A stretch of DNA of 64,000 bases from Bacilli bacterium (GTDB lineage: Bacteria; Bacillota_I; Bacilli_A; RF39; UBA660), in contig JAFRIJ010000011.1 in assembly GCA_017432825.1 (NCBI GenBank), positions 172,279-236,278 of the forward strand, given 5' to 3'. The notes beneath the pieces are model-generated. The model was not told where the DNA came from and ran no database searches. It saw nothing but the letters and a program-made list of their open reading frames with translations. The position numbers and the translations under genes are program-made. Shown in pieces: positions 2,734-58,771 of this stretch. Position 1 is the stretch's first letter. The number at the start of each line of letters is the position of its first letter.

Positions 2734-2789
2734 ATAATAAATATAATTATTAGTCATAAAATTAATTGAATAAGAGAGTGAGGTATGTT

Positions 2790-4259
2790 ATGGAAAAATT
2801 AGATGTTATTAAAAACATTTCCGAAAGATGTGGTGGAGATATATATTTAGGAGTGGTTGGTGCTGTTAGAACTGGTAAAAGTACTTTTATAAAGAATTTT
2901 ATGGAAAATCTTATTATTCCAAATATAGAAGATGAATTTGAAAAGAAAAGAACTTTAGATGAATTACCCCAATCTGCTCAAGGTAAGACAATAATGACTA
3001 CAGAACCTAAATTTGTTCCTGCTACTGCTACTAAGATAAAAATAGACGATTTTGAAGCGTCAATTAGAATGGTTGATTGTGTTGGATATGTTATTGATGC
3101 TGCCAAGGGGTATGAAGATGAAAATGGCCCTAGAATGGTGATGACACCATGGTATTCTGATCCTATTCCGTTTGTAGAGGCTGCTGAAATCGGGACTGAA
3201 AAGGTTATTAAAGAACATTCAACAATTGGTATAGTTGTTACTACTGATGGTTCTATTGGTGATATTCCAAGAAATGAATACGTAGAGGCTGAAGAGCAGG
3301 TCATTAATGATTTAAAGGATATTGGTAAGCCATTTATTGTTATTTTAAATTCCGCACATCCTATGATGCCAGATACTGAAAAGTTAGCAGATAAATTAAG
3401 AGATAGTTATAATGTTCCTGTTATTCCTATTAGTGTTTTAAATATGCAGGAAAGGGATATGTATAATATTTTGAAGGAAGCTTTATATGAATTCCCAATT
3501 GATGAAGTTAAATTTAATATTCCAGAATGGATTGCTATATTAAATAATGATAATGACATAAAAAAAGAATATGTTAAAAGAATTAAGGATAGTGTAATTG
3601 AAATTGATAAATTAAGAGATGTTGATAAAATTACTTTAGGGTTTAAAGATTCTGAATATATAGAAAAATCATATATTTCTAATGTAGATACTGCAAAAGG
3701 AGAGGTAACTATTCAACTTGATGCTCCTGATAATCTTTATAATACTGTTTTAAATAATATAATTGGAACAGATATTTCTTCTAAAGCAAAATTATTATCT
3801 ATGTTTCAGGATTATAATATTGCCAAAAGGGAATATGATCAAATTAAGGGTGCTCTTAATATGGTGAAACAGACTGGATATGGTATTGCTGCTCCAACTT
3901 TAACAGATATGAAATTGGAAACACCTGAAATAATTAAACAAGGCTCTAGATATGGTGTTAAATTAAAAGCAAAAGCACCTTCTATTCATATGATTAAAGT
4001 AGAAGTCGAATCTACATTTGAACCTATTATTGGTAGTGAACTTCAAAGTAAAGAATTAATTAATTATTTAACTAAATCTGATAATGGTAATGATATTTGG
4101 AAGAGTGAAATATTTGGTAGAAGTTTAGATGTAATTGTACAGGAAGGAATACAAGCTAAATTATCTATGATGCCTGATAATATTAGATATAAACTTAGTC
4201 AAACTTTAACTAAAGTTATTAATAAAGGTTCTAATAATATGATTGCTATTGTTATATAA
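2790..4259 (+). CDS. spoIVA: Stage IV sporulation protein A (spore coat morphogenetic ATPase)
   Basis: Sequence MEKLDVIKNISERCGGDIYLGVVGAVRTGKSTFIKNF with a Walker A GAVRTGKST. About 490 aa. RBS GAGAGTGAGG sits 6 nt upstream of the ATG at 2790; the ORF-track start at 2766 is a TTG inside that RBS. Confidence 0.9.
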   Translation: MEKLDVIKNISERCGGDIYLGVVGAVRTGKSTFIKNFMENLIIPNIEDEFEKKRTLDELPQSAQGKTIMTTEPKFVPATATKIKIDDFEASIRMVDCVGYVIDAAKGYEDENGPRMVMTPWYSDPIPFVEAAEIGTEKVIKEHSTIGIVVTTDGSIGDIPRNEYVEAEEQVINDLKDIGKPFIVILNSAHPMMPDTEKLADKLRDSYNVPVIPISVLNMQERDMYNILKEALYEFPIDEVKFNIPEWIAILNNDNDIKKEYVKRIKDSVIEIDKLRDVDKITLGFKDSEYIEKSYISNVDTAKGEVTIQLDAPDNLYNTVLNNIIGTDISSKAKLLSMFQDYNIAKREYDQIKGALNMVKQTGYGIAAPTLTDMKLETPEIIKQGSRYGVKLKAKAPSIHMIKVEVESTFEPIIGSELQSKELINYLTKSDNGNDIWKSEIFGRSLDVIVQEGIQAKLSMMPDNIRYKLSQTLTKVINKGSNNMIAIVI

Positions 4260-4342: not shown

Positions 4343-5066
4343 GGAAAAAATTGTACAGTTTTTTAATAATATGTATTATCTATTAGTACAAGACTAATAA
4401 ATAATACAATTATTAAGAACTTTAATAAACATTATCAGTGTTTATTACAATCTCTTATCATTGTGAAGTTTTTCTTTCTTCATAAACAATTGTTTTACTT
4501 AGTGGAGATAAGAATTATATTTCTATAATTTTTCTTTCCTACTGAAGATAGTAAATATAAATTATTATATAATTATTATAGGATAATATTATAATTAATT
4601 AAATAAATTAAGTAATTATATATTATTGAAATAATTATATATACAAAGGGTAATAATAGATTTTATTATTTTTAGTAATAATTTATTATGAGAAATAGAT
4701 TATTATTTATAAATAAATTATAAGTAATAAGGTATTAAATAATAAATTATTGAATAATAAATTATTGTTACCATATAATATTATTTAGATAATAAATTAA
4801 ATAAATAATATTAAGATTTTATATTTTGTATATCTTCTATCTAAGTGTCTTTATTATATCACTAGCATTATATCATGTCAATACTTTTTTAAAAAAAAAT
4901 GTAAAAATTTGTTTATTTTTTTTCCTTTAGAAAACTGTTAGTTAAATAGAGTAAAAAAAGTGCATATTTTATAATAAATGTATTGATTTTCATTTTTTTT
5001 CGTGATATCTTTATGTTGTAAGCATAGATTATAAGTTGCTTATTTATAGATTATGGAGGTATTAAT

Positions 5067-7367: not shown

Positions 7368-7461
7368 TCTTCCACCTTCTTATTCAATTTATATTATATC
7401 ATATTTTTTTAGGATACAAAATAGTTGTTTTTTATTTTCTTAAAAAAATAGAAGTATTTTG

Positions 7462-7905
7462 TTATTCTTCTATTTCTTCATCACTTAATATAGTTAAATC
7501 TGCTAATTCATCATCTGTATCATCATCTAGATAAGTCTCACTATTATCTAGATCATCTATGTCATTTTCTTCTTCGTCTGTATCATTTTCTTCTTCTTCT
7601 GTTTCTTCTGATTCAGTAGTGTTATCTTCGTATATTTCTTCCATTGATACTTTTACTTTGTGATTTGATTTTAAATCCCATTCTCCATTTTCTAATAATA
7701 TAAATTCTTTAGATGTACTTAATGATTGAAAGAAATCAGCTATATTATTTACGTAATCATCTTCTGATAATTCTAATAAATTACATACTTCCTTAAATAA
7801 TTCTGCTGTGTTTTTTGTGCTTTTATTTTCTTCTAGATATAGTTTTGCAATTTCTGTATATGGTAATAATTCTAATTCGTTTTTTGGTATTTTACTTAAT
7901 TTCAT
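7462..7905 (-). CDS. rpoE: DNA-directed RNA polymerase delta subunit
   Basis: N-terminal HARE-HTH-like domain (ELLPYTEIAKLYLEE...FILLENGEWDLKS) plus a long poly-acidic C-terminal tail (EETEEEENDTDEEENDIDDLD...), as in Bacillus RpoE. Confidence 0.8.
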   Translation of the reverse strand: MKLSKIPKNELELLPYTEIAKLYLEENKSTKNTAELFKEVCNLLELSEDDYVNNIADFFQSLSTSKEFILLENGEWDLKSNHKVKVSMEEIYEDNTTESEETEEEENDTDEEENDIDDLDNSETYLDDDTDDELADLTILSDEEIEE

Positions 7906-7917
7906 GATATGTCCTCC

Positions 7918-9162
7918 TTATATTTCATCAATAGGTATTAATCCTATTATATTTAAACTATTATTTATTACTATTTTTGAAGCATTAAACATATTTAATA
8001 TATTTATATTATTAAATGATTTTCTTTCAATAATTATATTTATTAAGCTAATTAGTTCTAATAAATAATCTATTATTATTTTTAAATCTTCTTTTTGATA
8101 TGATTTTATAATTATATCCTCAAAATCAGTTAATTTATTTATTATATTATAAATTATATTATTATTTGCATTATTATATACTTCTTTATTATTTTCTATT
8201 GATTTCATACATTTATTTATTTTGTTTATATATGTTGTTATTTTTATTAAATTTTTTTCTGACTCTTCATTAATTATACATTTATATCTAGTATAATTAA
8301 TATTTTCTTGAATTATATTTTTTCCCTCAATATTATTAATTTTTATTTTTTCTAGATCTAAGTTTAATAATTTAAGTGCCTCTTCGATACTTCTATCATT
8401 ATTATATATTACTATTTTTTCATAATTATTATATTTTTCATATATATGGGTTAAATATTTAGCAAAATCTGTATAATTTCCCATATTATCTATTAATTCT
8501 TTATTACATAATAATAGACTATTGTTATCTATATAACATATATTTTGATATCTTATTTTATTTAATAGATCTTCTATTTGATAACTATCTTCTATTTCTT
8601 TATTATCGGAGTACCTATCTATATATATTCTATATTTATCTAATAATATTTTTATTTCTTCTTTATCTATATTATTATTGTTTATATATATTTCTTTTTC
8701 TATATCGTAGCCGCAATAAGACAATATTCTAGAATAATTATCTATTGTTATTATAGTATTTAAGGATTTATTTATGTCTATTACTTCATCTATTATAGAT
8801 AATTCAATATTTATTTTTTTATTATTTCCTATATTGTTTTTTCCATAGTCTTTATCTTCTTTTAGTATTCTTTTTAGTCTTTCTATTAAGTATTCTTCTT
8901 TAATAGTTATTTTTATAGTATTATCTTCTAATAAATCTATATTTTTTATTATATTATTTCTTACTATTTTTTCTTTTATTCTATTAAATAATTCTTTACT
9001 ATTTATATAAACCATTTTATTTAATTCTTTAATTATATTTGTTAAATAGTATATTTCATTATTATCATTATAATACTTTAATTCTATTTCTTTATTAAAT
9101 TTGGTGGCTATTTCTTCTGATGTTTCTTTTAATAATTCTTTAAGAGTATTATTTATACTCAT
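7918..9162 (-). CDS. Hypothetical 414 aa Asn/Ile/Lys-rich low-complexity protein
   Basis: Long ORF ending 12 nt upstream of rpoE, suggesting an operon. No recognisable domain. Confidence 0.5.
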   Translation of the reverse strand: MSINNTLKELLKETSEEIATKFNKEIELKYYNDNNEIYYLTNIIKELNKMVYINSKELFNRIKEKIVRNNIIKNIDLLEDNTIKITIKEEYLIERLKRILKEDKDYGKNNIGNNKKINIELSIIDEVIDINKSLNTIITIDNYSRILSYCGYDIEKEIYINNNNIDKEEIKILLDKYRIYIDRYSDNKEIEDSYQIEDLLNKIRYQNICYIDNNSLLLCNKELIDNMGNYTDFAKYLTHIYEKYNNYEKIVIYNNDRSIEEALKLLNLDLEKIKINNIEGKNIIQENINYTRYKCIINEESEKNLIKITTYINKINKCMKSIENNKEVYNNANNNIIYNIINKLTDFEDIIIKSYQKEDLKIIIDYLLELISLINIIIERKSFNNINILNMFNASKIVINNSLNIIGLIPIDEI

Positions 9163-9660
9163 TAATAATCACTCATTTCTATGTAAAATTCGCATTCTTC
9201 ATTGCTATCTATTACTAAATAATTTATTTTAATATAGTTATTGTTTATCTCTATATTATTAGTTTTTATTTTAATTTTTAATATTAAATTACTATCTTTT
9301 AATAAGTAATTAGATAAATTAATATAATTTTTAGAAAAATATAATTTATGTTTTGTTTTTTCATTTTCTATTATTATTAATAATGGAGAATGATTTTTTT
9401 CTATCGTATATTTGTAATTTTCTATTTGAAATATTATTCTATTATCATTTTCTATTCCTATAGTATTAATGATATTAGAATTATTATTATTTTTTATATA
9501 TCCTGTTAATTTTTTCTTCGTAAAATCTCCTCCAATTTGTTTAATTCAGTAGACATTATATCATAAGTTTATGAAAAATAAAACTTATATTTATATTTTT
9601 TTTACTAATAATATAAATAGATAATTTTTTTGCTTATTTTATATAGAAAAGAGTGATTTT

Positions 9661-19910: not shown

Positions 19911-21665
19911 ATGTTTAAGGAAATAACTGCTATAAGTAAAAATTATGCTATGGTTAGGATAGATGGTACTGTTAGTGATGACTTACTTAATATGAATGTT
20001 ATATTTGAAGATGGTACTAAAAAGATTCTAGGTGAAGTTGAAGAAGTTGATAAAGATCAACTAAAAATTAGTTTTTTGGGTGAATTTATTAATGGTAAAT
20101 TTTTAGGTGGTATTATTAGAAAACCTAGTTTAACTTCTAAAATTAGAATGATTAATCAAGAAGAATTAGGTGAGTTAGTTGGAGATAATGATGATAAGAG
20201 TATGGTTTTAGGTTTATCTCCTTTATATAATAACTATCCTATTAAAATAAATATTGATGAGATGTGGAGTAATCATAGTGCTATATTTGGTAATACTGGT
20301 AGTGGTAAAACATACGGTGTATCTAGATATGTACAAAATTTATTTACTATACCTGATAAAATTCCTTTTAACAGTAACATATTTATATTTAATAATACTG
20401 ATGAATATGATAATGCTTTTAAGAGTATAAATAATTATAATATTAATTTTAATTATAAGATGTATTCAATTAATGGAGATGATAATAGTTGTATTAGACT
20501 TCCATTATGGTTATTATCAGTAGATGATTATGCTAATTTATTGGATGTTACTGAATATTCTCAACTTGCTATAATTGAAAAGATGTTGAGTTTAGTATCT
20601 GCTTTTGCTAAGAAAGATGAAGAATCTAAAAGGTATCAAAATCATTTAATTGCTAGTGCTATTACTTCTGTTTTATATACTAATCAAACTCCTGGTAGAA
20701 TTAGAGATCAGATTTTTCAAATATTGGAAAGCTGTCATACTGAAGAATTAAATTTAGATGTTGAAGTCCCTGGGGTTGGATATACTAGACAATTTAGAAA
20801 ATGCTTTGAAATTGATAGTAAAGGTGAATTTGCAGAAAGAGTTTTAATAGCTGAATATATTCAGAAATTTGTTGATAACAATACTATTTGGAATGAAGAT
20901 TATGTTCCTATATATTTTACTTTATCTGATTTGGAAGTTGCTTTAAACTTTACTTTAATATCTGAGGGATTACTTCTTAATGAAAAGTCTTATTCAGAAG
21001 CTATGGCTCTTAAAGTAAGACTTCATACTTTAAATAATAGTAGTTATAAGAAAATATTTGATTATCCTAGATTTGTTAATATGAATGAATTTATTACTGA
21101 TATTATAATGGTTGGTCAAAATAAAAGAGCGCAAATTATTAATTTTGTTTTAGAAGATATTGACGATAGATTTGCTAAGGCTATTGTTAAGGTATACTGT
21201 AGAATTGTATTTAAATTTAGTAAATCTCTTAAAGAAAGAGGAGCAATGCCTATTCATTTAATGTTAGAAGAAGCTCATAGATATGTACAAAGAGATAATG
21301 ATGTTAATATTTTGGGATATAATATGTTTGAACGAATTGCTAAGGAAGGTAGAAAATTTGGCTTAGTATTAGATTTAATTACTCAAAGACCCACTGAACT
21401 ATCTGAAGCTGTTATATCACAGTGTAGTAACTTTTTAATATTTAAGATTACCCATCCTACTGATTTGGAATATATTAGAAAGATGGTACCTAATATTAGT
21501 GCTGATGTTATTGAAAAGCAAAAAGCTCTTCAATCTGGTACTTGTGTTGCTTTTGGTAGAATGATGAAAATTCCTATGATTGTTAAGATGGAATTACCTA
21601 ATCCTGAGCCTAGAAGTTCTAATGCATCTATCTATAATAAGTGGATGATTGATTGGAAGAAATAA
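19911..21665 (+). CDS. HerA/FtsK-superfamily (DUF87-like) P-loop ATPase, 584 aa, located between rpmH and oriC-dnaA
   Basis: Strong RBS GAGGAGGAG. N-terminal beta-rich domain. Walker A GNTGSGKTYG and Walker B IHLMLEEAHRY. C-terminal LITQRPTELSEAVISQCSNFLIFKITHPTDLEYI is typical of HerA-like ATPases. Confidence 0.8.
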   Translation: MFKEITAISKNYAMVRIDGTVSDDLLNMNVIFEDGTKKILGEVEEVDKDQLKISFLGEFINGKFLGGIIRKPSLTSKIRMINQEELGELVGDNDDKSMVLGLSPLYNNYPIKINIDEMWSNHSAIFGNTGSGKTYGVSRYVQNLFTIPDKIPFNSNIFIFNNTDEYDNAFKSINNYNINFNYKMYSINGDDNSCIRLPLWLLSVDDYANLLDVTEYSQLAIIEKMLSLVSAFAKKDEESKRYQNHLIASAITSVLYTNQTPGRIRDQIFQILESCHTEELNLDVEVPGVGYTRQFRKCFEIDSKGEFAERVLIAEYIQKFVDNNTIWNEDYVPIYFTLSDLEVALNFTLISEGLLLNEKSYSEAMALKVRLHTLNNSSYKKIFDYPRFVNMNEFITDIIMVGQNKRAQIINFVLEDIDDRFAKAIVKVYCRIVFKFSKSLKERGAMPIHLMLEEAHRYVQRDNDVNILGYNMFERIAKEGRKFGLVLDLITQRPTELSEAVISQCSNFLIFKITHPTDLEYIRKMVPNISADVIEKQKALQSGTCVAFGRMMKIPMIVKMELPNPEPRSSNASIYNKWMIDWKK

Positions 21666-21996
21666 ACAGTTTATTGTGGAAAAAAATATTTAATAAAGCT
21701 ATGTTTTTTAAGGCATAGCTTTTTTTTTAACTTATTTGCACATATTTCAACATGTTAAAAAATAGTTTTCCACAGGTACTGTTGTTCGTTAACTGTGGAT
21801 ATTTGTGGATAAGTCCTTTTTTCTTTTATTTTATAAGTCTTTTATTGTTGATAATTAAGTGGAAATACATATATTATTTTTGTTTATTGTTATTTATTTT
21901 CCACATTGAAAAAAATTTGTTACTTTCTAATGAAATATATACACAATTATTTTTTTTATGTTAAAATAACTTTATAAATGTTTTGGAGGTGATGAT
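21666..21996. promoter_or_regulatory. oriC part 1: DnaA-box cluster upstream of dnaA (at least 5 boxes) plus the dnaA promoter region
   Basis: TGTGGAAAA at 21678-21686. TTTTCCACA at 21766-21774 and 21897-21905. TGTGGATAT at 21794-21802. Perfect TGTGGATAA at 21804-21812. Confidence 0.7.
21696..21729 (+). terminator. Rho-independent terminator after the HerA-like gene (AAGCTATG/CATAGCTT plus T8)
   Basis: 8-bp stem followed by TTTTTTTTT. Confidence 0.5.
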
Positions 21997-23385
21997 GTGG
22001 ATATTAATTCTTTATGGAATAATTTTTTAGATAAAATTAAAGAGAATATCTCTTCACTTTCATACGAAACATGGTTTAAGGATACTAAACTAGTTAATCT
22101 TAATGATAATACTGCTACTGTTATTGTTCCTATGCCTTTTCATAAAAAGCATTTGGTAGAAAATTATAAAAATATTATTGAAGATACTTTTTGTAATATT
22201 ACTGGAACTAAATTTAATTTTAATTTTTTATTAGAAGAGGAATGGAATTTAGAGAAGGATTCTATTGAAGAAATTATTTCTTCTTCTAGTTTAAGTAATA
22301 ATAATGATTTAGGCGGTGTGGTTAATCAATCTTATGAAGATGCTAATTTAAATCCTGATTATTCTTTTACTAACTTTATTGTAGGAAACTCTAATAGATT
22401 TGCATATACTGCTTCTATGGCTGTAGCAGAAAAACCTGGTAAAGCTTATAATCCATTGTTTTTATATGGGAAAAGTGGTTTAGGTAAAACTCATCTTATG
22501 CATTCTATTGGTAATTATATTATAGAGAATAGTAATTTAAGAGTTTTATATATTTCAAGTGATAAGTTTGTTAATGATTTTATTAATGCTGTTAGAAGTA
22601 ATGATAAAGATAATTTTGATAAAATTGATTCATTTAAAAATAAATATCGTAATATCGATGTGTTAATGATTGATGATATTCAATTTTTAGGTAATGCTAC
22701 TAAGGGTCAAGAGGAATTTTTTCATACTTTTAATGAATTATATAATTGTAATAAACAGATTGTTATTGCATCTGATAGATCTGTTGATGATTTAAAGATG
22801 TTGGAAAATAGGCTTCTTACTAGGTTTAATTGGGGACTTACTGCTAATATTACTCCTCCTGATTTTGAGCTAAGAATGAATATTATAAGAAAAAAGATAG
22901 CCCATCAAGAGTCTGCTAAAGATGTTCCAGATGAGGTTATAGAATATATTGCTAATAACTTTGCTTCTGATGTTCGTAAGCTGGAGGGTGCTATTACTAG
23001 AGTATTTGCTTACGCTCTTATGATGAATAAGGGTATTGTTGATTTAGATACTGCAGTAGATGCTTTAAAAGATCAGTTAACCGACAGAAGTGTTTATAAA
23101 AACGATATAAATAGAATTCAGACTGTTGTTTGTGATTATTTTAAAATTGATTTAGATGACATGAAGGGTAAAAAAAGGAGTCAAAATATTAATTATCCTA
23201 GACAAGTTGCTATATATTTATGTAGAACTATGGCTAATGAGTCATTTCCTAAGATTGGTACACACTTTGGTGGTAGAGATCATTCTACCATTATGAGTTC
23301 ATATAATAAAATAGAAAGAGATTTAAAAAATAATGAACAATTAAAAGTTGTAATTAATGATTTAAAAAAGATGTTATCAACATAG
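21997..23385 (+). CDS. dnaA: Chromosomal replication initiator protein DnaA
   Basis: AAA+ motifs GKSGLGKTHL and IDDIQFLG; C-terminal DNA-binding domain. GTG start 7 nt after a GGAGG RBS. Confidence 0.97.
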   Translation: MDINSLWNNFLDKIKENISSLSYETWFKDTKLVNLNDNTATVIVPMPFHKKHLVENYKNIIEDTFCNITGTKFNFNFLLEEEWNLEKDSIEEIISSSSLSNNNDLGGVVNQSYEDANLNPDYSFTNFIVGNSNRFAYTASMAVAEKPGKAYNPLFLYGKSGLGKTHLMHSIGNYIIENSNLRVLYISSDKFVNDFINAVRSNDKDNFDKIDSFKNKYRNIDVLMIDDIQFLGNATKGQEEFFHTFNELYNCNKQIVIASDRSVDDLKMLENRLLTRFNWGLTANITPPDFELRMNIIRKKIAHQESAKDVPDEVIEYIANNFASDVRKLEGAITRVFAYALMMNKGIVDLDTAVDALKDQLTDRSVYKNDINRIQTVVCDYFKIDLDDMKGKKRSQNINYPRQVAIYLCRTMANESFPKIGTHFGGRDHSTIMSSYNKIERDLKNNEQLKVVINDLKKMLST

Positions 23386-23521
23386 TGTGTTGAAATTGAT
23401 ACTTGTTATCAACAAGCTTGTGGAAAATAAATCCTTATAATATAAGAGTATAATTAACTTTTCCACAGTTTCCACTCTATAATAATAAATAATTAATATT
23501 AATAAAGAAAGAAGGATTATT
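23386..23521. promoter_or_regulatory. oriC part 2: DnaA boxes plus an AT-rich unwinding element between dnaA and dnaN
   Basis: TTATCAACA at 23406-23414. TGTGGAAAA at 23419-23427. TTTTCCACA at 23459-23467. These are followed by the AT tract TATAATAATAAATAATTAATATTAATAAAG. Confidence 0.65.
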
Positions 23522-24749: not shown

Positions 24750-25226
24750 ATGAAAGAAAAGGTAGATTATGTTATTAATTATGAAACTTTACTTATTATG
24801 CCTTATGAAAATGACAAAAGTAAGGTATATGAATATGATGAAATTTTTATAGTTAATATGAATGTAATGGATATTATTAAGAATAGTTGTTTATTTTTTG
24901 GAAGTTCTTTAGATGGTAGGAAAGAGGGAACTAAGCATTTGATTAGTTGCGAGATGAAGGTACCAATTATTGTTGAGGATAGTGGATTACTTATATTCTT
25001 TCCTACTGGATCTTATAGAAATAAATCTAATATATGGATTTCTTATAATAATATACTTAATTATTCTAAAATAGATAGTAATCATACTATGATATTTTTT
25101 AAAGAAAATAATAATATTTCTATTAATGTTAAGTATAATATTTTAGATAATCAGATTATTAGATGTATTAAATTAGATGCTGTTTTTAATAAAAGAAGAT
25201 TATGTTCAAATTTGAGTGAAAAATAG
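24750..25226 (+). CDS. ComK-family protein (competence transcription factor-like), 158 aa
   Basis: Strong match to recalled B. subtilis ComK. SCLFFGSSLDGRKEGT compares with SCRFFGSSYAGRKAGT. KVPIIVEDSGLLIFFPTGS compares with KPPIMVDPSNQIFLFPTLS. WIS and NQIIRCIKL compare with NQVYRTAWL. RBS is AAGGGGGA. Confidence 0.75.
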   Translation: MKEKVDYVINYETLLIMPYENDKSKVYEYDEIFIVNMNVMDIIKNSCLFFGSSLDGRKEGTKHLISCEMKVPIIVEDSGLLIFFPTGSYRNKSNIWISYNNILNYSKIDSNHTMIFFKENNNISINVKYNILDNQIIRCIKLDAVFNKRRLCSNLSEK

Positions 25227-28379: not shown

Positions 28380-30848
28380 ATGCAAGAAGAATTAAATGAT
28401 AAGAAAATAAGTGTAGATATTGTAGGAGAGATGAAGACATCTTTTCTAGATTATTCTATGAGTGTTATTGTAGCTAGAGCTATTCCTGATGTTAGAGATG
28501 GTTTAAAGCCAGTTCATAGAAGGGTTTTATATACTTTATATGAAGAAGGCATGACTCCTGATAAAAAATATCAAAAGAGTGCTAATGCTGTAGGTGCTGT
28601 TATGGGGCATTACCACCCTCATGGAGATTCTGCAATTTATGATACTATGGTTCGTATGGCACAAGATTTTACATATAGACATTGTTTAGTTGATGGTCAT
28701 GGTAATTTTGGTTCAATTGATGGTTTTGGAGCAGCTGCTTCTCGTTATACAGAAGCAAGACTTGCAAAAATATCTATGGAACTATTAAGAGATTTGCAAA
28801 AAGAAACTGTGGATTTTGACGATAACTATGATGGACAAAGAAAAGAACCGGTTGTTTTACCTAGTAGATTTCCTAATATTTTAGTTAATGGTAATATGGG
28901 AATTGCTGTTGGTATGGCTACTAATATTCCTCCTCATAATTTGGGAGAAGTTATAGATGCATGTGTTGCATATATTGATAATAATGAAATATCTGTTAAT
29001 GAATTAATGCAATTTGTTAAAGGCCCTGATTTTCCAACTGCGGGTATAATTCTTGGAAATAGTGGTATTAGAAGAGCATATGAAACAGGTAGAGGTGCTA
29101 TTACTATTCGTGGTAGAGCTGAAATTGAAGATCATCATGGAAAAGATAGAATAATTATTACAGAGCTTCCTTATCAAATTAATAAAAAAGCCTTAATTAC
29201 TAGAATTGGCGAGCTTGTTAGAGATAAGGTATTAGATGGTATTTCTAATTTAAGTGATGAGTCTGCTTTAGAAGGTATAAAGATTGTTATTGATGTTAAA
29301 AAAGAAGCTAATGCTAATGTTGTTTTAAATAATTTATATAAGCATACTCAGTTACAAACTTCTTATGGTATTAATTTCTTAATGTTAGTTGATGGAAAAC
29401 CTAGAACTCTTGGTTTGAAAGAAATAATTGAAAAGTATATTGAACATCAACGAAATGTTATTTATCGTAGATGTCAATTTGATTTAAGAAAATATAAAGA
29501 TAGATTACATATTTTAGAGGGATTAAAAATTGCTTTAGATAATATTGATAAAGTTATTAAAATTATTAGAGAATCTGAAACTGATGAAATTGCTCAAAAT
29601 GGTCTAATGAATGAATTTGGTTTATCTCAAGCACAAGCACAAGCAATCCTTGAAATGAGATTAAAGAGATTAACAGGATTAGAAAAATCTAAAATTGAAG
29701 ATGAAATTAACGAGTTGTTGCAATTAGTTTCTGAACTTGAAGATATTTTAGCTCATGAGGATAAGATTTTTGAAGTTATAAAGAAGGAAATGTTAGAAAT
29801 AAAAGAAAAATATGCTGATGAGAGAAGAACTTATATTGATATGTCTGCAATAGATTTTATAGATGATGAATCTTTAATTCCTGTGGAAAACTCAGTTTTA
29901 ACTATGACAAAGAATGGCTATATTAAGAGAATGGCTGTTGATACATATAGAACTCAAAATCGTGGTGGCGTAGGTGTTAAAGGTATGTCTACTAATGAAG
30001 AAGACTTTGTGGAAACTATAATTAATACAAGTTCTCATGATGATGTTATGTTCTTTACTAGTAAGGGTAGAGTATTTAGATTAAAAGGTTATGAGGTTCC
30101 TGAATATAGTAGACAATCTAAGGGAATTCCATTAGTTAATTTACTTAATTTAGATAAAGATGAACGTGTTACATCTATTTTAAAATTAAATAGGGAAGAA
30201 GATATTAAAGATTTAGTGTTTGCTACTAAATTTGGTTTAATTAAACGTACTCCTATTGAAGAATTTGATAAAATTAGAACTAATGGCAAAAAAGCTATTA
30301 CTTTAAAAGATAATGATGAGTTAATTGCAGTAAGAAAAACTAATGGTAATAATGAAATATTAATGGCATCAACTAATGGTAGAATGGTTAGATTTAATGA
30401 AGATTGTGTACGTGTTATGGGACGTTCTGCTAGTGGAGTTAAAGGAATTGACCTTAATGGTGGAATTCTTGTAAATATGGATGTTGTTAAGGATAATTGT
30501 GATGTATTTGTTATTACTAAGAATGGTTATGGTAAGAAAACACCAATTGAAGAATATCGTATTACTAATCGTGGTGGAAAAGGTGTTAAGACGTTAAATA
30601 TAACTGAGAAAAATGGAGATATAGTTTCGTTTAATGTTGTATCTGGTGATAATAAAGATTTAATGATTGTTACTGATGAAGGTGTAGTTATTCGAATTGA
30701 TATGTCACAGATATCTACTTTAAGTAGAGTTACTCAAGGTGTTAGACTTATTAATTTAAGAGATGGTCAATTTGTAAGTACTGTTGCAATTATCGATCGA
30801 GATGATTCTATATCTAGTGAGTCTAATGATAATATTGAAAATGTTTAA
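28380..30848 (+). CDS. gyrA: DNA gyrase subunit A
   Basis: Active-site region AMRYTEARL-like (AASRYTEARL); QRDR region HPHGDSAIYD; 822 aa. Confidence 0.97.
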   Translation: MQEELNDKKISVDIVGEMKTSFLDYSMSVIVARAIPDVRDGLKPVHRRVLYTLYEEGMTPDKKYQKSANAVGAVMGHYHPHGDSAIYDTMVRMAQDFTYRHCLVDGHGNFGSIDGFGAAASRYTEARLAKISMELLRDLQKETVDFDDNYDGQRKEPVVLPSRFPNILVNGNMGIAVGMATNIPPHNLGEVIDACVAYIDNNEISVNELMQFVKGPDFPTAGIILGNSGIRRAYETGRGAITIRGRAEIEDHHGKDRIIITELPYQINKKALITRIGELVRDKVLDGISNLSDESALEGIKIVIDVKKEANANVVLNNLYKHTQLQTSYGINFLMLVDGKPRTLGLKEIIEKYIEHQRNVIYRRCQFDLRKYKDRLHILEGLKIALDNIDKVIKIIRESETDEIAQNGLMNEFGLSQAQAQAILEMRLKRLTGLEKSKIEDEINELLQLVSELEDILAHEDKIFEVIKKEMLEIKEKYADERRTYIDMSAIDFIDDESLIPVENSVLTMTKNGYIKRMAVDTYRTQNRGGVGVKGMSTNEEDFVETIINTSSHDDVMFFTSKGRVFRLKGYEVPEYSRQSKGIPLVNLLNLDKDERVTSILKLNREEDIKDLVFATKFGLIKRTPIEEFDKIRTNGKKAITLKDNDELIAVRKTNGNNEILMASTNGRMVRFNEDCVRVMGRSASGVKGIDLNGGILVNMDVVKDNCDVFVITKNGYGKKTPIEEYRITNRGGKGVKTLNITEKNGDIVSFNVVSGDNKDLMIVTDEGVVIRIDMSQISTLSRVTQGVRLINLRDGQFVSTVAIIDRDDSISSESNDNIENV

Positions 30849-30856
30849 TATTTTTA

Positions 30857-30886
30857 AAAGAACTTTTATAGTTCTTTTTATTTTTG
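30857..30886 (+). terminator. Terminator after gyrA (AAAGAACT/AGTTCTTT plus T-run)
   Basis: 8-bp stem, 5-nt loop, TTTTATTTTT tail. Confidence 0.55.
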
Positions 30887-30893
30887 CCTTTGT

Positions 30894-31012
30894 TGTGGAA
30901 AACTCCTTTTTTGTTCTATAATCTGTTTTAAAAATTAAATTTTGCTTATATTTTATTACAAAATTTAATTTTTGAAATTTTATTTTAGTTTTTGCTTGTT
31001 ACTGTGGATAAT
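30894..31012. promoter_or_regulatory. Two additional DnaA boxes downstream of gyrA
   Basis: TGTGGAAAA at 30894-30902. Perfect TGTGGATAA at 31004-31012. Confidence 0.4.
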
Positions 31013-31039: not shown

Positions 31040-31625
31040 ATAAATAATATAATGTTTCACGTGGAACATTATATTTTTTTTATACTTTTATTTTTATATA
31101 TAAAATATGTAATATTAATATTTAATATATATTATGCAATTCATTATGTTTCACGTGAAACTATATTTTAATTAAATTCTAAAATATTCTTTTTATAATT
31201 AATAATTTTAATTAACTCTTTACTTTTTATATTTATTATTTTAATTTGATATATTTTCTGTATAATGTTTCACGTGAAACATTAAAATTTTTTATTTAAT
31301 TTTTTTATACTTTTTATTTTTATATAAAATATGTAATATTAATATTTAATATATATATTATGCGATTCATTATGTTTTACGTGGAACTATATTTTAATTC
31401 AATTCTAAAATATTCTTTTTATAATTAATAATTTGTAATTAACTCTTTACTTTTTATGTTTATTATTTTAATTTGATATATTTTCTGTATAATGTTTCAC
31501 GTGGAACATTAAAATTTTTTTATACTTTTTATTTTTATATAAAATATGTAATATTAATATTTAATATATATTATGCGATTCATTATGTTTCACGTGAAAC
31601 TATAAAATTATATTACTATTTTAAT
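31040..31625. repeat. Tandem direct repeat, about 213-227 bp unit with about 2.7 copies. Each unit carries two long palindromes built on CACGTG. X-type is TAATGTTTCACGTGRAACATTA (perfect 22-bp copy at 31263-31284). Y-type is ATGTTTCACGTGAAAC.
   Basis: X cores at 31052-31069, 31265-31282 and 31492-31509. Y cores at 31146-31161, 31372-31387 and 31585-31600. Units align with under 10% divergence. A TATAAT hexamer directly abuts each X palindrome. Confidence 0.8.
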
Positions 31626-31714: not shown

Positions 31715-31743
31715 TTGATTATTTATAATTTTAATGATATAAT
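31715..31743 (+). promoter_or_regulatory. Sigma-A promoter for the SRP RNA gene (TTGATT, 17-nt spacer, TATAAT)
   Basis: TTGATT at 31715-31720; 17-nt spacer; TATAAT at 31738-31743. Predicted TSS at about 31750. Confidence 0.55.
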
Positions 31744-31749
31744 TTGTTT

Positions 31750-31826
31750 GATGCAACAATAATGCTGTGGAACCAAGTCAGGATTGGAAGATAGCAGCTT
31801 TAACATAGTTTATTGTGTGCATCTTT
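31750..31826 (+). ncRNA. ffs: Signal recognition particle RNA (small 4.5S-type, about 77 nt)
   Basis: Conserved domain IV AAGUCAGGAUUGGAAGAUAGCAGC compares with E. coli AGGUCAGGUCCGGAAGGAAGCAGC. 5' GAUGCAACAAUAA pairs with 3' UUAUUGUGUGCAUC. A U-run terminator follows. Position upstream of dnaX is as in Bacillus. Confidence 0.7.
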
Positions 31827-31938
31827 TTTTTATATTATTAACCGAACGAACGTTTATTTATTTAGAGAAATATATTTTTATTGTTTATTTGTTTGCTTTT
31901 TTATGATATAATATTTTTAGTTTTAGGTAGGTGGTTTT

Positions 31939-44363: not shown

Positions 44364-44897
44364 ATGAAAACAACAGGTATTATTAGAAGAATTGATGATT
44401 TGGGAAGAATTGTTATTCCTAAAGAGTTAAGAAGAAATCTACATATAAAGAATGGGGATACTATTGAAATATTTGTTGATATGGATAATATTATTTTAAA
44501 AAAATATTCTCCAATGGAAAGTATAGAAGATGCTGCTATAAAATATGTTGAGAGTTTTAATCAAGTTTTAAAACATAATGTTATTGTTACAGATAAAGAT
44601 AAGGTTATAGCAGTTAGTGGTAGTTTAAAGAAAAATTATTTAGGAAAGAATATTAGTGAATTTACTGATAGAAGTATTGAGAGAAGAGATAGTTTTGTGG
44701 AAAGACAAAAAAAGAATTTTTCTTTTGTAGAGGGAGTTGAAGATTTTGGATATTATTCTTTTAGTTCTATTGTTAATAATGGTGATACATTAGGATCTGT
44801 TATTATTGTTTCTTTAGATAAACCTATTTTAGAATTTGAAGAAAAAATGGCAATTATATTATCTAAGCTTCTTTCTAATAAATTTATTACAGATTAA
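44364..44897 (+). CDS. spoVT: Stage V sporulation protein T (AbrB-family regulator with GAF domain)
   Basis: Sequence MKTTGIIRRIDDLGRIVIPKELRRNLHIKNGDTIEIFVD (AbrB-N swapped hairpin) plus a C-terminal GAF domain; follows mfd as in Bacillus. Confidence 0.85.
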   Translation: MKTTGIIRRIDDLGRIVIPKELRRNLHIKNGDTIEIFVDMDNIILKKYSPMESIEDAAIKYVESFNQVLKHNVIVTDKDKVIAVSGSLKKNYLGKNISEFTDRSIERRDSFVERQKKNFSFVEGVEDFGYYSFSSIVNNGDTLGSVIIVSLDKPILEFEEKMAIILSKLLSNKFITD

Positions 44898-49750: not shown

Positions 49751-50524
49751 GTGATATTATTGATAAATATTGGTGATTATGTTACTAGGAAATCTTATAA
49801 TAATGATATAGTTTTTAAAGTTGTTGATATAAAGGATGATATTTATTATTTGTATGGTGTTTGTGTAAGATTATCTGCTGATAGTCCTTTATCTGATTTA
49901 GTTAAATATAATGATATTATTAATGATGATTTTAATGTAAAAATAGATGAGTATGTTAATTTAGATAGAAATGATTTTTTTTATATTCCTGGTACTGTTT
50001 TACATATTGATGGTGATAAAAATTTTTTAGGTAAGAGTATGAATTTTTATAAGAGTAATAAAATTAAGGCATATGGTGTGTATTCTCCTGAAGATGAATT
50101 AGAGGATAATGTTTATAAATATTTGGAAAAATATAATCCGGATATTCTTGTTATTACTGGTCATGATGCTTTATTTCGTAAGGAAAGAGCAAATGGTAAG
50201 TACAAGAATACTAATAATTTTGTAAAAGCTGTTAGGGTAGCAAGAAAATATGAAAAATCTCAAGATAAATTAATTATTATAGCAGGAGCTTGTCAATCTA
50301 ATTATGAAGAATTAATTAAAGCTGGAGCAAATTTTGCTTCTAGTCCTAAACGTATTAATATACATGCATTAGATCCTGCTGTTATTGCTACTTCATTATC
50401 TTTTTCTGACAAAAATAAAAATATTGATTTAATTAATATTTTAGAAAAAACTAAATATGGTTCTGATGGTATAGGTGGTATTATTACTAATGGAACTATG
50501 TACGTTGGATATCCTAGAAAATAG
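49751..50524 (+). CDS. yabG: Sporulation-specific protease YabG
   Basis: About 257 aa, in the conserved ksgA-yabG-veg position; matches the YabG peptidase (U57) family by recalled pattern (ILVITGHDA...). Start may be GTG at 49751 or TTG at 49760. Confidence 0.7.
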   Translation: MILLINIGDYVTRKSYNNDIVFKVVDIKDDIYYLYGVCVRLSADSPLSDLVKYNDIINDDFNVKIDEYVNLDRNDFFYIPGTVLHIDGDKNFLGKSMNFYKSNKIKAYGVYSPEDELEDNVYKYLEKYNPDILVITGHDALFRKERANGKYKNTNNFVKAVRVARKYEKSQDKLIIIAGACQSNYEELIKAGANFASSPKRINIHALDPAVIATSLSFSDKNKNIDLINILEKTKYGSDGIGGIITNGTMYVGYPRK

Positions 50525-52084: not shown

Positions 52085-53968
52085 TTATTTCTCTTCTTTT
52101 TCTTCTTCTTTTTCTTTAGGAAGATGTCCTGTCTTTACTAATGAATCTATTTGTTCTTTAGTAATTGTTTCTTCTTCTAATAGTGTTTTTGCGATAAGGT
52201 CTAATAATTTTTTATTATCTTTAATTATTTTTTTTGTTTTTGTATAGCAATCATTTATTATGCTTCTCATTTCTTCATCTATTTCATGAGCAACTATATC
52301 TGAAACGTTTCTGTTTTTTGTATAATCTCTTCCTAAAAATGTATTTTCTGATGGTTCTTCTAACATCATTGGTCCTAATTTACTCATACCATATTCTGTT
52401 ACCATACTTCTTGCTATTTTTGTTGCTTTTTTGAAGTCATCATGAGCACCTGTTGTTATTTCATTAAATTCTACTTCTTCAGCAACACGTCCACCTAATA
52501 ATCCACATATTGATTCTAATAATTCATCTTTTGTATAATTGAATGTTTCTTCTTTTGGTGTCATCATTGTATATCCACCGGCTTGACCTCTTGGGATTAT
52601 TGTTATTTTTTGAACGTCGTTTGCTCCTTCTAGTTTTAAGCCTACTACTGCGTGACCTGCTTCGTGGTACGCTACTAGTTTTTTCTCTTTATCTGTGTAT
52701 TTTTTTGTAACTTTTGCTGGCCCCATAATTACTCTATCTGTTGCTTCATCTATTTCACTCATTGTTATTGCTTTTTTATTTCTTCTTACTGTTAATAATG
52801 CGGCTTCGTTTAATAAATTTTCTAGATCTGCACCACTAAATCCAGGTGTTCTTTTAGCTAGGTTTTCTAATGTTATATTTTCATCAAATTTTTTGTTTTT
52901 AGCATGTACTTTTAATATTTCTAGTCTTGCATTTTTATCTGGCATACCTACTGTAACTTGTCTATCAAATCTTCCTGGTCTTAGTAAGGCAGGATCTAAT
53001 ACGTCAGGTCTGTTGGTTGCTGCTATTACAATTATTCCTTCGTTTGGACCAAACCCATCCATTTCAGTTAGTAATTGATTTAGTGTTTGCTCTCTTTCAT
53101 CGTGACCACCACCTAAACCTGTTCCTCTTTGTCTACCTACGGCATCAATTTCATCTATAAATATTAAACATGGTGCATTTAGTTTTGCTTGTTTAAACAT
53201 ATCTCTTACACGAGATGCTCCAATTCCGACAAATAATTCTACAAAGTCTGAACCACTTATATAATAAAATGGTACTTTTGCTTCTCCTGCTACTGCTCTT
53301 GCTAATAATGTTTTACCTGTTCCAGGAGGACCTACTAAAAGTATTCCTTTTGGTATTCTAGCTCCCATAGCTTGAAATTTTTTTGGATTTTTTAAGAAAT
53401 CAATTAATTCTTTGACCTCTTCTTTTTCTTCTGTTAATCCAGCTACATCTTTAAAGTTTGTTTTAGTTCCTTCTTCTAATAATCTTGCTCTTGATTTTCC
53501 AAAATCCATTGATTTATTGTTTCCACCAATTTGTCTTGTAAATAACCAGAATAGTGCAATACTCAATATTGCTAGTGGAACTATATCTACTAATAAGGCT
53601 AACCATTCTGATGCCTCAGGATCTTTCTCAACTGTTAATTTAATTTCTTGGTTATCTTCGGCTGCTGTGATTTTTGATAAGAATTCATCTGACATTGGTA
53701 GATAAAGTATAAACGATTCATTATCTTTATATTCTTTTAATTTACCTGTTATTTCGTATGTATTAGTTCTTGTTTTTGGTATGATTTTAATTTCTGTAAT
53801 TTTCTGGTTGCTTAAATTCTCAGTAAATTCATCATAGGTTAGTTCATTTACTTTTTTATTATAAGTATTAAATACTAATAAACATATTATTATAAATGTT
53901 AATAAAAATACGTAAGGTAATAGTCCTTTTTTCACTGTTTTATTATTCATTATTTTCCTCCTTTTCAC
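52085..53968 (-). CDS. ftsH: ATP-dependent zinc metalloprotease FtsH
   Basis: Walker [19 protein letters not shown]; SRH; zinc motif HEAGHA; two N-terminal TMs. 627 aa. Confidence 0.95.
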
Positions 53969-55274
53969 AGTACTTAAGTATTATATCACATAATTCATTT
54001 TTTTTAGTATTAAATTTAGATTTTTTTATATTTGGTATCCATAGTATATTATTATCGCTATCTTTTAAAATTGGATAATTATCTCTTTTGTTTTTGGGAA
54101 TTTTATTATTGATAAAAATATCTTTAATTTTTTGTTTGCCATTTAATCCTAATACTTCGATATAATCTCCATCTTCTCTATTTGTAATATATAGTGGTAA
54201 TGATATTTTTTTAGAATTTAATCTACATATATTATTACCGTTTTCTTCTGTATTATCTATTTTCTTTATTATATATTCATTTGTTTCTATAATATTATTA
54301 AATTCAATTTTGTATTTGTTTTTATTACATACATTTGTTTTAAAATATAATTTGTTATATTCTTTTATACATATAATATTTTTAGGTAAGTTAATAAATA
54401 TATTCGGTTTGGTACTATTAATTATATTTATAATATCAATAATATTTTTTTCTTTTATTATGTCTGTTTCGTTGTTATATATTTTAGTCAATAATTTGTA
54501 TATTACATTTTTAATTAAAAAATTATCTAATTTTTTAATTTTATCTATATCTAAATTATTATTTTTATAGTTTCTTTTAATTATTTTTTCTGTTTCTTTA
54601 TTTATATAGTTATTATATTCTTGTAGTGTGTTAGAATACTTTAAAAACATTTTATGTATATCTGTATTTTCTTCTTTTAATAATGGTAAAATGTTTTTTC
54701 TAATTCTATTTCTTGTATATTCTATATTATTATTTGTTGTATCAATATAGTATTTTATATTGTTTTGTTTATTATAATTTATTAAATCTTCTTTGGTATA
54801 TTTTAATAATGGCCTTATGATGTAATAATTATCTGGATGTGATATTTCTTTTATTCCAGCATATCCTTCTAAATTTGATCCTCTTATTATTTTCATTAAG
54901 ATTGTTTCTATTAAATCATCTCCATGATGTGCTAAAAAAAGATATTTTGAATTATATTTTCTTAATATTTTTTTATAAAATGCATATCTTTTTTTTCTTG
55001 CTTCGTTTTCAAAGTTATTTTCTTTATACTTTTCTATTAACATACTTTCAAATATAATATTATTGTTATTGCAATATTCTTTTAGATATAATTCTTCTTC
55101 TTTACTTTCTTTTCTTACGTTATGATTAATATGGGCACATACTATATTATTTGTTGTATTGTTTTTTAAATAATGTAATAGTGCCATTGAATCTGGTCCT
55201 GCAGAACAACCTACTATTAGGTAATCTTTAGGTTTAATGTCTAATTTTAAATCATTTAAAATATTCTTTAACAT
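53943..55274 (-). CDS. tilS: tRNA(Ile)-lysidine synthetase TilS
   Basis: PP-loop VGCSAGPDSMALL; 443 aa; overlaps the ftsH start by 26 nt. Confidence 0.9.
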   Translation of the reverse strand: MLKNILNDLKLDIKPKDYLIVGCSAGPDSMALLHYLKNNTTNNIVCAHINHNVRKESKEEELYLKEYCNNNNIIFESMLIEKYKENNFENEARKKRYAFYKKILRKYNSKYLFLAHHGDDLIETILMKIIRGSNLEGYAGIKEISHPDNYYIIRPLLKYTKEDLINYNKQNNIKYYIDTTNNNIEYTRNRIRKNILPLLKEENTDIHKMFLKYSNTLQEYNNYINKETEKIIKRNYKNNNLDIDKIKKLDNFLIKNVIYKLLTKIYNNETDIIKEKNIIDIINIINSTKPNIFINLPKNIICIKEYNKLYFKTNVCNKNKYKIEFNNIIETNEYIIKKIDNTEENGNNICRLNSKKISLPLYITNREDGDYIEVLGLNGKQKIKDIFINNKIPKNKRDNYPILKDSDNNILWIPNIKKSKFNTKKNELCDIILKYCEKEENNE

Positions 55275-57410: not shown

Positions 57411-57478
57411 TAATTGACTTTATTTTTTTATATGTTTTATGTTATAATTATAATTAGTTTATGGAAGAAGGGATAATT

Positions 57479-58771
57479 ATGTTAGATATTAAGTTTGTAA
57501 GAGAAAATCCTAATATAGTTAAAGAAAATATTAAGAAAAAATTTCAAGATAAAAAAATACCTTTGGTAGATGAAGTAATTTCTTTAGATAAGGAAATTAG
57601 AGATTTAAAATTAAAAGGTGATCTTTTAAGACAAGAAAGAAATGAAACTAGTTCTTTAATTGGTAGTTTGATGCGTGATGGTAAAAAAGATGAAGCTATG
57701 AGTAAAAAAGAACGTGTTGTTGATATTAATAAAGAATTAGTTGATATTGAAAAAAGTGAAGAAGAAAAAAGTGTTTCTTTAAAAGAAAAGATGATGCTAA
57801 TACCTAATATTATTGCTGATGATGTTCCTATTGGAGAGGATGATTCTAAGAATGTAGAAGAATCTTCTTTTGGAGAAACAATTGTTCCTAAATATGAAAT
57901 ACCATATCATTCTGATATTATGGCTAGTTTTAATGGGTTGGATAAAGAAGCTGCTGGACGTGTTAGCGGTAATGGATTCTATTATTTAATGGGGGATATT
58001 GCTAGACTTCATTCAGCTGTTTTAGCATATGCTAGAGATTTTATGATTGATAAGGGATTTACTTATTGTATTCCTCCTTATATGATTCATGGTGATGCTG
58101 TGAATGGGGTAATGTCTTTTGAAGAAAAAGAGAATATGATGTATAAAATTGAAGGAGAAGATTTGTATTTAATTGGTACAAGTGAGCATTCTATGATTGC
58201 TAGATACAAAGATCAAATTTTAAATGAATCTGATTTGCCTATTACTATGACTTCTTATTCTCCTTGTTTTAGAAAAGAAGTAGGTGCTCATGGTATTGAA
58301 GAAAGAGGGATATATAGAATTCATCAATTTGAAAAACAAGAGATGGTTGTGATATGTAAGCCAGAAGATAGTGACGCTTGGTATGATAAGATGTGGAATT
58401 ATTCTGTTGAATTATTTAGAAGTCTGGATATTCCTGTTAGAAAATTAGTTTGTTGTTCTGGAGATTTAGCTGATTTAAAATATCGTTCATGTGATATTGA
58501 GGCTTGGAGTCCAAGACAAAAGAAATATTTTGAGGTTTGTTCTTGTTCTAATTTAACCGATGCTCAAGCTAGAAGGCTTGCTATTAGATATAGAAAAGAA
58601 GATGGAGAAAAGGAATTTACTCATACTTTAAATAATACCGTAGTTGCACCACCTAGGATGTTAATTGCGTTTTTAGAGAATAATTATCAAGAGGACGGAA
58701 GTGTTTTAATACCTAAAGTATTACAACCTTATATGGGTGGAAAGGATAGATTAGTTCCTAATAATAAATAA
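57479..58771 (+). CDS. serS: Serine--tRNA ligase
   Basis: N-terminal coiled-coil arm (MLDIKFVREN...) plus class II core motifs; 430 aa. RBS GAAGAAGGGA. Confidence 0.95.
   Translation: MLDIKFVRENPNIVKENIKKKFQDKKIPLVDEVISLDKEIRDLKLKGDLLRQERNETSSLIGSLMRDGKKDEAMSKKERVVDINKELVDIEKSEEEKSVSLKEKMMLIPNIIADDVPIGEDDSKNVEESSFGETIVPKYEIPYHSDIMASFNGLDKEAAGRVSGNGFYYLMGDIARLHSAVLAYARDFMIDKGFTYCIPPYMIHGDAVNGVMSFEEKENMMYKIEGEDLYLIGTSEHSMIARYKDQILNESDLPITMTSYSPCFRKEVGAHGIEERGIYRIHQFEKQEMVVICKPEDSDAWYDKMWNYSVELFRSLDIPVRKLVCCSGDLADLKYRSCDIEAWSPRQKKYFEVCSCSNLTDAQARRLAIRYRKEDGEKEFTHTLNNTVVAPPRMLIAFLENNYQEDGSVLIPKVLQPYMGGKDRLVPNNK

Follow-up and report, generated by a model that had tools for sequence, protein, structure and literature searches.

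Organization of the origin region

The 64-kb stretch of DNA analyzed here, referred to below as the window, contains a replication origin together with its surrounding genes. On the minus strand it encodes rsmG, mnmG, mnmE, jag and yidC, on the plus strand dnaA, dnaN, comK, recF, gyrB and gyrA. DnaA boxes, scored at up to one mismatch, cluster on both sides of dnaA (Table 1), which is the usual bipartite oriC of Firmicutes, and the GC skew switches at about 19-20 kb. The gap between gyrA (28380-30848) and the SRP RNA gene ffs (31745-31831; Rfam, 53 bits) holds a tandem array, exactly where an earlier sequence-only reading of this DNA had placed it; ffs is followed by dnaX, ybaB and recR. With a distance of 7.6-9.4 kb to the right of the dnaA-flanking oriC, the array is origin-proximal. 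Two DnaA boxes were found at its left edge, compared to 0.12 expected, and it is uncertain whether they are part of the element. We also considered the gyrA-ffs gap as a part of oriC and rejected this, as the DnaA boxes cluster around dnaA and just two adjoin the array.

Two further genes of this region stand out. A HerA/DUF87-type ATPase of 584 aa (19911-21665, plus strand) is located between the yidC side and the DnaA-box cluster upstream of dnaA; the protein has weak similarity to anti-phage-associated HerA models and is an unusual neighbor of oriC. A comK homologue (24750-25226, plus strand; Pfam ComK, 5e-40) occupies the place between dnaN and recF that yaaA/rlbA takes in B. subtilis, and the same homologue is present in two independent assemblies (L001 and L002).

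Table 1. Candidate parS sites of the array and associated features of the origin region (positions refer to the window).
Feature	Position	Strand	Remarks
Second ParB-family paralogue, 435 aa	11635-12942	-	ParB_N; after mnmG-rsmG, Noc position
oriC part 1	21675-22004		7 DnaA boxes upstream of dnaA
oriC part 2	23374-23467		4 DnaA boxes between dnaA and dnaN
gyrA terminator-like hairpin and T-run	30856-30878	+	-7.6 kcal/mol, z -4.75
Two DnaA boxes	30894-31011	-	TGTGGAAAA at 30894 and perfect TGTGGATAA at 31003; left array edge
Tandem array, ~226-bp unit x 2.6	31048-31604		Tandem Repeats Finder; X-type and Y-type parS per full unit
parS X1 TGTTTCACGTGGAACA	31053-31068		0 mismatches to TGTTNCACGTGAAACA on the minus strand
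parS Y1 TGTTTCACGTGAAACT	31147-31162		1 mismatch, outer position 16
parS X2 TGTTTCACGTGAAACA	31266-31281		perfect palindrome, 0 mismatches
parS Y2 TGTTTTACGTGGAACT	31373-31388		2 mismatches
parS X3 TGTTTCACGTGGAACA	31493-31508		0 mismatches
parS Y3 TGTTTCACGTGAAACT	31586-31601		1 mismatch
ffs promoter TTGATT-17-TATAAT	31715-31743	+	upstream TG, near-consensus; promoter scan
parA/soj-type ATPase, 274 aa	55400-56224	+	Pfam AAA_31 (5.9e-68) and CbiA; overlaps start of parB
Canonical parB, 293 aa	56196-57077	+	Pfam ParB_N and HTH_ParB; putative reader of the array

Structure of the array and support from independent assemblies

Tandem Repeats Finder assigned the array a period of 226 bp with 87 % matches and 7 % indels (Table 1), and the units are 92-96 % identical over the aligned columns of our own alignment. 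This is in agreement with the tandem repeat of about 220 bp and less than 10 % divergence that had been described from the sequence alone. A perfect 22-bp inverted repeat, TAATGTTTCACGTGAAACATTA, is present at 31263-31284 as reported there. Two other details had to be adjusted: six palindromes do exist, but the fourth (Y2, TGTTTTACGTGGAACT, at 31373) is centered on TACGTG and not on CACGTG, and while a TATAAT hexamer abuts all three X copies, the longer string TGTATAATG occurs in only two of them and reads AATATAATG at X1. A blastn search with the 226-bp unit revealed no second copy elsewhere in the window.

An identical gyrA was found in three independent metagenome assemblies of the same uncultured organism. 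One of them (L001) contains the same array sequence with a 100-N gap (9189-9288) inside unit 3, and the other two (L002 and L003) terminate within the array. Because the assemblies gap or end at this place, 2.6 units represent a minimum copy number, and the copy number could vary between samples. Such arrays are spots where short-read assemblies break; with the exception of the copy number, an assembly artefact as the origin of the array is ruled out by the presence of diverged units in independent assemblies.

The palindromes match the chromosomal centromere site parS

Comparison with the parS consensus TGTTNCACGTGAAACA resulted in at most two mismatches for each of the six 16-mers (Table 1). 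Counting the motif across the window, as the sequence-only reading had suggested, gave six sites at this threshold, all of them within the array (0.02 expected by chance), and no further site anywhere else in the 64 kb. At three mismatches one extra match appears in the window, which is located inside mnmG and lacks the CACGTG core. The consensus and its variant with A or T at the outer base are documented as functional parS (PMC7022226), and these exact 16-mers have been used as parS across many papers. The outer-base variant of the Y type corresponds to the functional consensus of S. pneumoniae, AGTTTCACGTGAAACT (PMC7022226). Within the array, Y2 is probably the weakest site; having two mismatches including one in the core, it may be weak or dead.

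Judged from this sequence match together with the origin-proximal position, the encoded ParA-ParB pair and the conservation in relatives (see below), the six palindromes very probably (roughly 93 %) form a cluster of chromosomal parS centromere sites and hence a candidate loading site for ParB instead of a new operator. The sequence-only reading had not recognized the motif as parS, the site of ParB/Spo0J, which is absent from the list of operators used for that comparison (CodY, cre, Rex and others). One of the alternatives named at the time, a binding-site array for a dimeric chromosome-organizing protein, is very probably the correct one.

A closely related possibility is the Noc binding site NBS (ATTTCCCGGGAAAT), a 16-bp palindrome used by a ParB-family paralogue, and a paralogue in the Noc position is indeed encoded in the window. 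Two bases per half-site separate parS from NBS (Jalal et al., 10.1101/724823). While NBS half-sites have A and C at these positions, the parS-type G2 and A7 are kept in 12 of 12 half-sites of the window and in 62 of 62 when the relatives described below are included. Furthermore, no NBS was found at up to two mismatches in the 64-kb window. The G2/A7 half-sites and the absence of NBS from the window rule out a Noc/NBS reading of the palindromes.

A canonical ParA-ParB pair is encoded in the window

The putative reader of the array is encoded together with parA in an operon whose neighbors are tilS/ftsH (52085-55274, minus strand) on one side and serS (57461-58771) on the other, about 33 kb to the right of oriC. 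The best PDB match of this ParB is Spo0J of B. subtilis (6SDK, 5e-61), and its score stays below the NCBIfam cut-off for Noc (239 vs 315 bits). The protein aligns column-for-column with Spo0J through the CTP-motif block, LLRLP and SMGHAR, and it has an intact CTP motif GERRxRA, an N-terminal LGKGLEQLF motif and a Spo0J-like C-terminus. R173 and G201 (Caulobacter numbering) are both present, a pair that is absolutely conserved in parS-specific ParBs (Jalal et al., 10.1101/724823), and the protein thereby shows the RxxG specificity pattern defined in that study. Several ParA/partition-type models of NCBIfam match the ParA protein (best E-values 1.6e-33 to 9.4e-31), with scores under each of the curated cut-offs (e.g. 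115 vs 180 bits for ParA_partition). The parB gene is 24.6 kb away from the array and does not adjoin it; the window scan found no parS within parB, and no smc gene is located in the 64-kb window.

Following established ParABS biology (PMC7022226; PMC8494293; PMC8357415), dimers of the canonical ParB would load at each palindrome, turn into closed, CTP-bound clamps and slide from there into the flanking DNA, which would lead to one partition complex beside oriC. This complex would be expected to stimulate ParA, resulting in the separation of sister origins, and to load SMC condensin, by which the chromosome arms would be zipped up. Having several parS within about 0.55 kb would increase the loading rate of ParB and provide redundancy, yet keep a single SMC entry point. 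Clustering of parS has been argued to help avoid collisions of SMC (Anchimiuk et al., PMC8357415), and the compact array is in line with the idea that ParB is loaded robustly, from one SMC entry point, when its sites are tightly clustered.

Promoter, hairpin and mobile-repeat readings of the array

The reading that had originally been put first regarded each X palindrome as the operator of a dedicated dimeric repressor, which acts on a TATAAT -10 element and controls short transcripts or ffs-dnaX. It takes its appeal from the TATAAT next to all three X copies; as these copies are duplicates of one another, they amount to one observation. In a promoter scan, none of the X-abutting hexamers had an acceptable -35 partner at 16-18 bp. 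Promoter-like sites were not enriched (21 vs 15.7 +/- 3.5 expected), and neither was TATAAT itself in the gap with its 13.5 % GC (8 vs 5.05 +/- 2.14). The Y sites lack an abutting TATAAT, and in the relatives the hexamer abuts 3 of 50 half-sites, which is about the compositional expectation, so that this geometry is not conserved. In addition, ffs has its own promoter (Table 1) and does not need the hexamers of the array. ParB bound to intergenic parS can repress neighboring genes in P. aeruginosa (PMC7022226), which makes a transcriptional side effect on ffs/dnaX conceivable. A dedicated repressor is very improbable for a motif that is identical to parS and whose putative reader is encoded in the same window.

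The palindromes could also act at the level of RNA or DNA hairpins, serving in the gyrA-ffs gap as an array of intrinsic terminators or as structural elements. RNA folding of the X copies does result in hairpins (-8 to -11.9 kcal/mol, z -2.7 to -6.5), and a T-run directly follows X1, but the Y copies fold no better than shuffled sequences (z -0.5 and +1.25), a terminator scan found none in the array and no Rfam family matches it. Since gyrA has its own terminator-like hairpin (Table 1), termination of gyrA does not require the array. Across 31 sites of the window and its relatives, the sequence is invariant and lacks compensatory changes, as is characteristic of a site bound by a protein, and this leaves the hairpin explanation extremely improbable.

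Hardly any probability at all is left for a MITE-like or other mobile dispersed repeat that happens to hold the palindrome, another alternative of the sequence-only reading. The array does resemble such elements in being a tandem, AT-rich, palindrome-bearing non-coding repeat. Nevertheless, the blastn search with the unit had matched nothing in the 64 kb outside the array, and in the relatives nothing beyond the parS core is shared; the position is conserved there and the flanks are not. No phage match was obtained, and the plasmid matches were limited to two short, AT-rich and non-significant ones of about 78 %. Identification of the palindromes as a bacterial centromere means that no new regulator has to be proposed, and its value lies mainly in the correct annotation, with a centromere taking the place of a presumed operator.

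Conservation of parS sites downstream of gyrA

For the comparison with related genomes we used a GyrA-based scan with one genome per species, which yielded 57 loci. The nine closest loci (GyrA 61-91 % identical) come from uncultured Bacilli of low GC content. Among them, L005 stops directly behind gyrA and gives no information. In 8 of 8 informative relatives, two to four parS are located directly downstream of gyrA; in two of these relatives they lie just 3' of ffs, in the others within the gyrA-ffs gap. The remaining 48 loci, i.e. L005 and 47 more distant genomes, have no parS within 5 kb of gyrA.

In a profile of the 31 sites (62 half-sites), the information content is high over the 16-mer and one flanking A (57 of 62) and is at background at all positions beyond. 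Spacing of the sites ranges from 35 to 791 bp in the relatives. Two of them have tandem units of their own, 35 bp x 3.5 in L007 and 68 bp x 2.3 in L014, two more (L006 and L008) have pairs of sites 36-37 bp apart, and no tandem structure is detectable in four relatives. Conservation thus does not extend to the spacing, the flanks, the tandem structure or the TATAAT next to the sites. Of the array that the sequence-only reading had proposed to look for in related strains, the parS sites and their position are kept, whereas the 226-bp tandem repeat is not. As the clusters persist with and without tandem repeats, selection acts on the palindrome, its position and its multiplicity rather than on the 226-bp unit. 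A recent, lineage-specific duplication of a two-site unit gave rise to the 226-bp tandem structure, which is not itself the functional unit, and the copy number of the array appears to turn over by tandem duplication.

In L007, a perfect direct repeat of 20 bp x 2 (7464-7503) just upstream of the 35-bp parS array makes an extra isolated half-site, TGTTCCAC. This repeat looks like a footprint of the slippage that builds these arrays.

Comparison with known partition systems

The Spo0J-Soj system of B. subtilis has the identical consensus, and the minus strand of X1 and X3, TGTTCCACGTGAAACA, is of the B. subtilis type. Likewise, B. subtilis is a spore-former with origin-proximal parS, and the ParB of the window is most similar to Spo0J with the same CTP and HTH motifs. 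The arrangement is different: the 10 parS of B. subtilis are distributed over much of the chromosome, mostly intragenic, with eight in the origin domain (PMC7022226; PMC8357415), whereas the six sites of the window are found in one intergenic tandem array of 0.55 kb and none of them inside parB. Moreover, parAB adjoins rsmG/noc in B. subtilis, in contrast to its distant position in the window. With regard to sporulation, the window contains spoIVA (2766-4259), spoVT (44364-44897) and yabG (49751-50524), which point to a spore-former although some relatives carry 'Mollicutes'-like labels. Downstream of spoIVA, an Rfam PGK RNA motif (75.5 bits) is located at 4425-4519 on the minus strand.

S. 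pneumoniae, also a low-GC Firmicute, has four origin-proximal sites with the outer A/T found in the Y sites of the window, but it lacks the ParA that the window encodes. Redundant sites near oriC that serve as one partition and SMC-loading region are also present in P. aeruginosa (parS1-4), C. glutamicum (10), M. xanthus (22) and C. crescentus (5). Unlike these clustered sets, the array of the window is far more compact and was built by tandem duplication. Most bacteria cluster their parS within 5-40 kb (Anchimiuk et al., PMC8357415; PMC7022226), and scattered parS are peculiar to a few lineages, Bacilli among them (Anchimiuk et al., PMC8357415).

Head-to-tail repeats that each carry a palindrome for a ParB-family protein are known from tandem centromeres of plasmids, such as sopC of plasmid F. 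The sopC centromere consists of 12 tandem repeats of 43 bp. The short units of L007 and L014 look especially iteron-like. In contrast to plasmid centromeres, the window combines chromosomal parS with an origin context and has no plasmid or phage similarity.

How common such dense arrangements are became evident from a metagenome scan for two perfect parS 15-45 bp apart, which matched at least 120 contigs with a GC content of 27-71 %. Among the matches listed, at least 44 contigs have three or more parS in 1 kb and at least four have six or more, the densest containing 15 and 10. The 15 sites are found in 1 kb just upstream of dnaA-dnaN on an unrelated contig with 35 % GC (L085, 1044-2027), the 10 sites in 0.9 kb just upstream of parA-parB on another unrelated contig with 55 % GC (L094, 280-1146). 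Because dense parS arrays are common elsewhere, the array of the window is a compact example of a common architecture and an ordinary, well-understood kind of feature, mildly notable only because it is found in a Bacilli-class lineage. The comparative point is a modest one: a lineage of this class packs its origin-proximal parS into a single intergenic array that spans less than a kilobase and whose position is conserved.

DnaA boxes beside parS and a second ParB paralogue

In addition to its role as a parS cluster, and without excluding it, the locus could be a module of parS and DnaA boxes that couples ParA/ParB to DnaA titration or initiation control, or the array could be shared with a second ParB paralogue. 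An excess of DnaA boxes next to the parS cluster is seen in the window (see above), in L044 (7 vs 0.5 expected) and in L009 (3 vs 0.23; 7432-7888), and one box lies beside the parS cluster of L004. In L044, the seven boxes are found in the 1.7-kb gyrA-ffs gap (7540-9082), several of them directly abutting parS, and TTTTCCACA is located 6-10 bp after each of the three parS sites. The five other relatives with parS clusters, however, have no DnaA box there. The adjacent DnaA boxes mentioned in the sequence-only reading are thus present in the window, at 30894 and 31003, but do not accompany parS in these five genomes. A systematic parS-DnaA-box module was rejected, as the association holds only in the closest subclade of the window; the boxes may be a secondary cluster coupled to the centromere.

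The possible partner on the protein side is a conserved, catalytically altered ParB paralogue encoded beside rsmG (Table 1). Its family has at least 57 long members (375-527 aa; P0001-P0057) in uncultured Bacilli, and the position after mnmG-rsmG is kept in a member of 38 % identity (L181, 10001-11242). An invariant GNRR replaces GERR in this family, and D or N is found at the position of B. subtilis E111. In B. subtilis ParB, the exchanges E78Q and E111Q abolish CTP hydrolysis (PMC8494293), which makes impaired CTP hydrolysis a reasonable inference for the paralogue family. The paralogue has Noc-like K179 and K184. About 240 of its residues form a predicted disordered, N/P/Q-rich linker in which a PxFGGRFFP motif is conserved, and its C-terminal domain is small and conserved; the mean pLDDT of the model is 58.8. 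At the parS-reading position 173 it has I and not R, and it lacks the GHAR helix, which makes binding to parS doubtful. Together with the Noc-like K179/K184, this renders the 435-aa protein an unlikely reader of the array. Overall, we consider a coupled module or a shared array unlikely as an addition to the parS cluster. The paralogue itself, with its missing catalytic glutamate and its long disordered linker, is more unusual than the array.

A broader scenario would make the gyrA-ffs gap the single fixed centromere of the clade, fast-evolving and repeatedly rebuilt by independent tandem amplification (35-, 37-, 68- and 226-bp units), with DnaA-box coupling in a subclade and possible sharing with the hydrolysis-impaired ParB paralogue in the Noc position. 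Taken as a whole, this scenario is speculative and quite unlikely.

Two of the relatives, L004 and L014 (GyrA 91 % and 64 % identical, 25-27 % GC), have been deposited as 'uncultured Muribaculaceae bacterium'. Both have the same dnaA-gyrA-ffs synteny as the window, and the label is probably a taxonomic mislabel of these MAGs.
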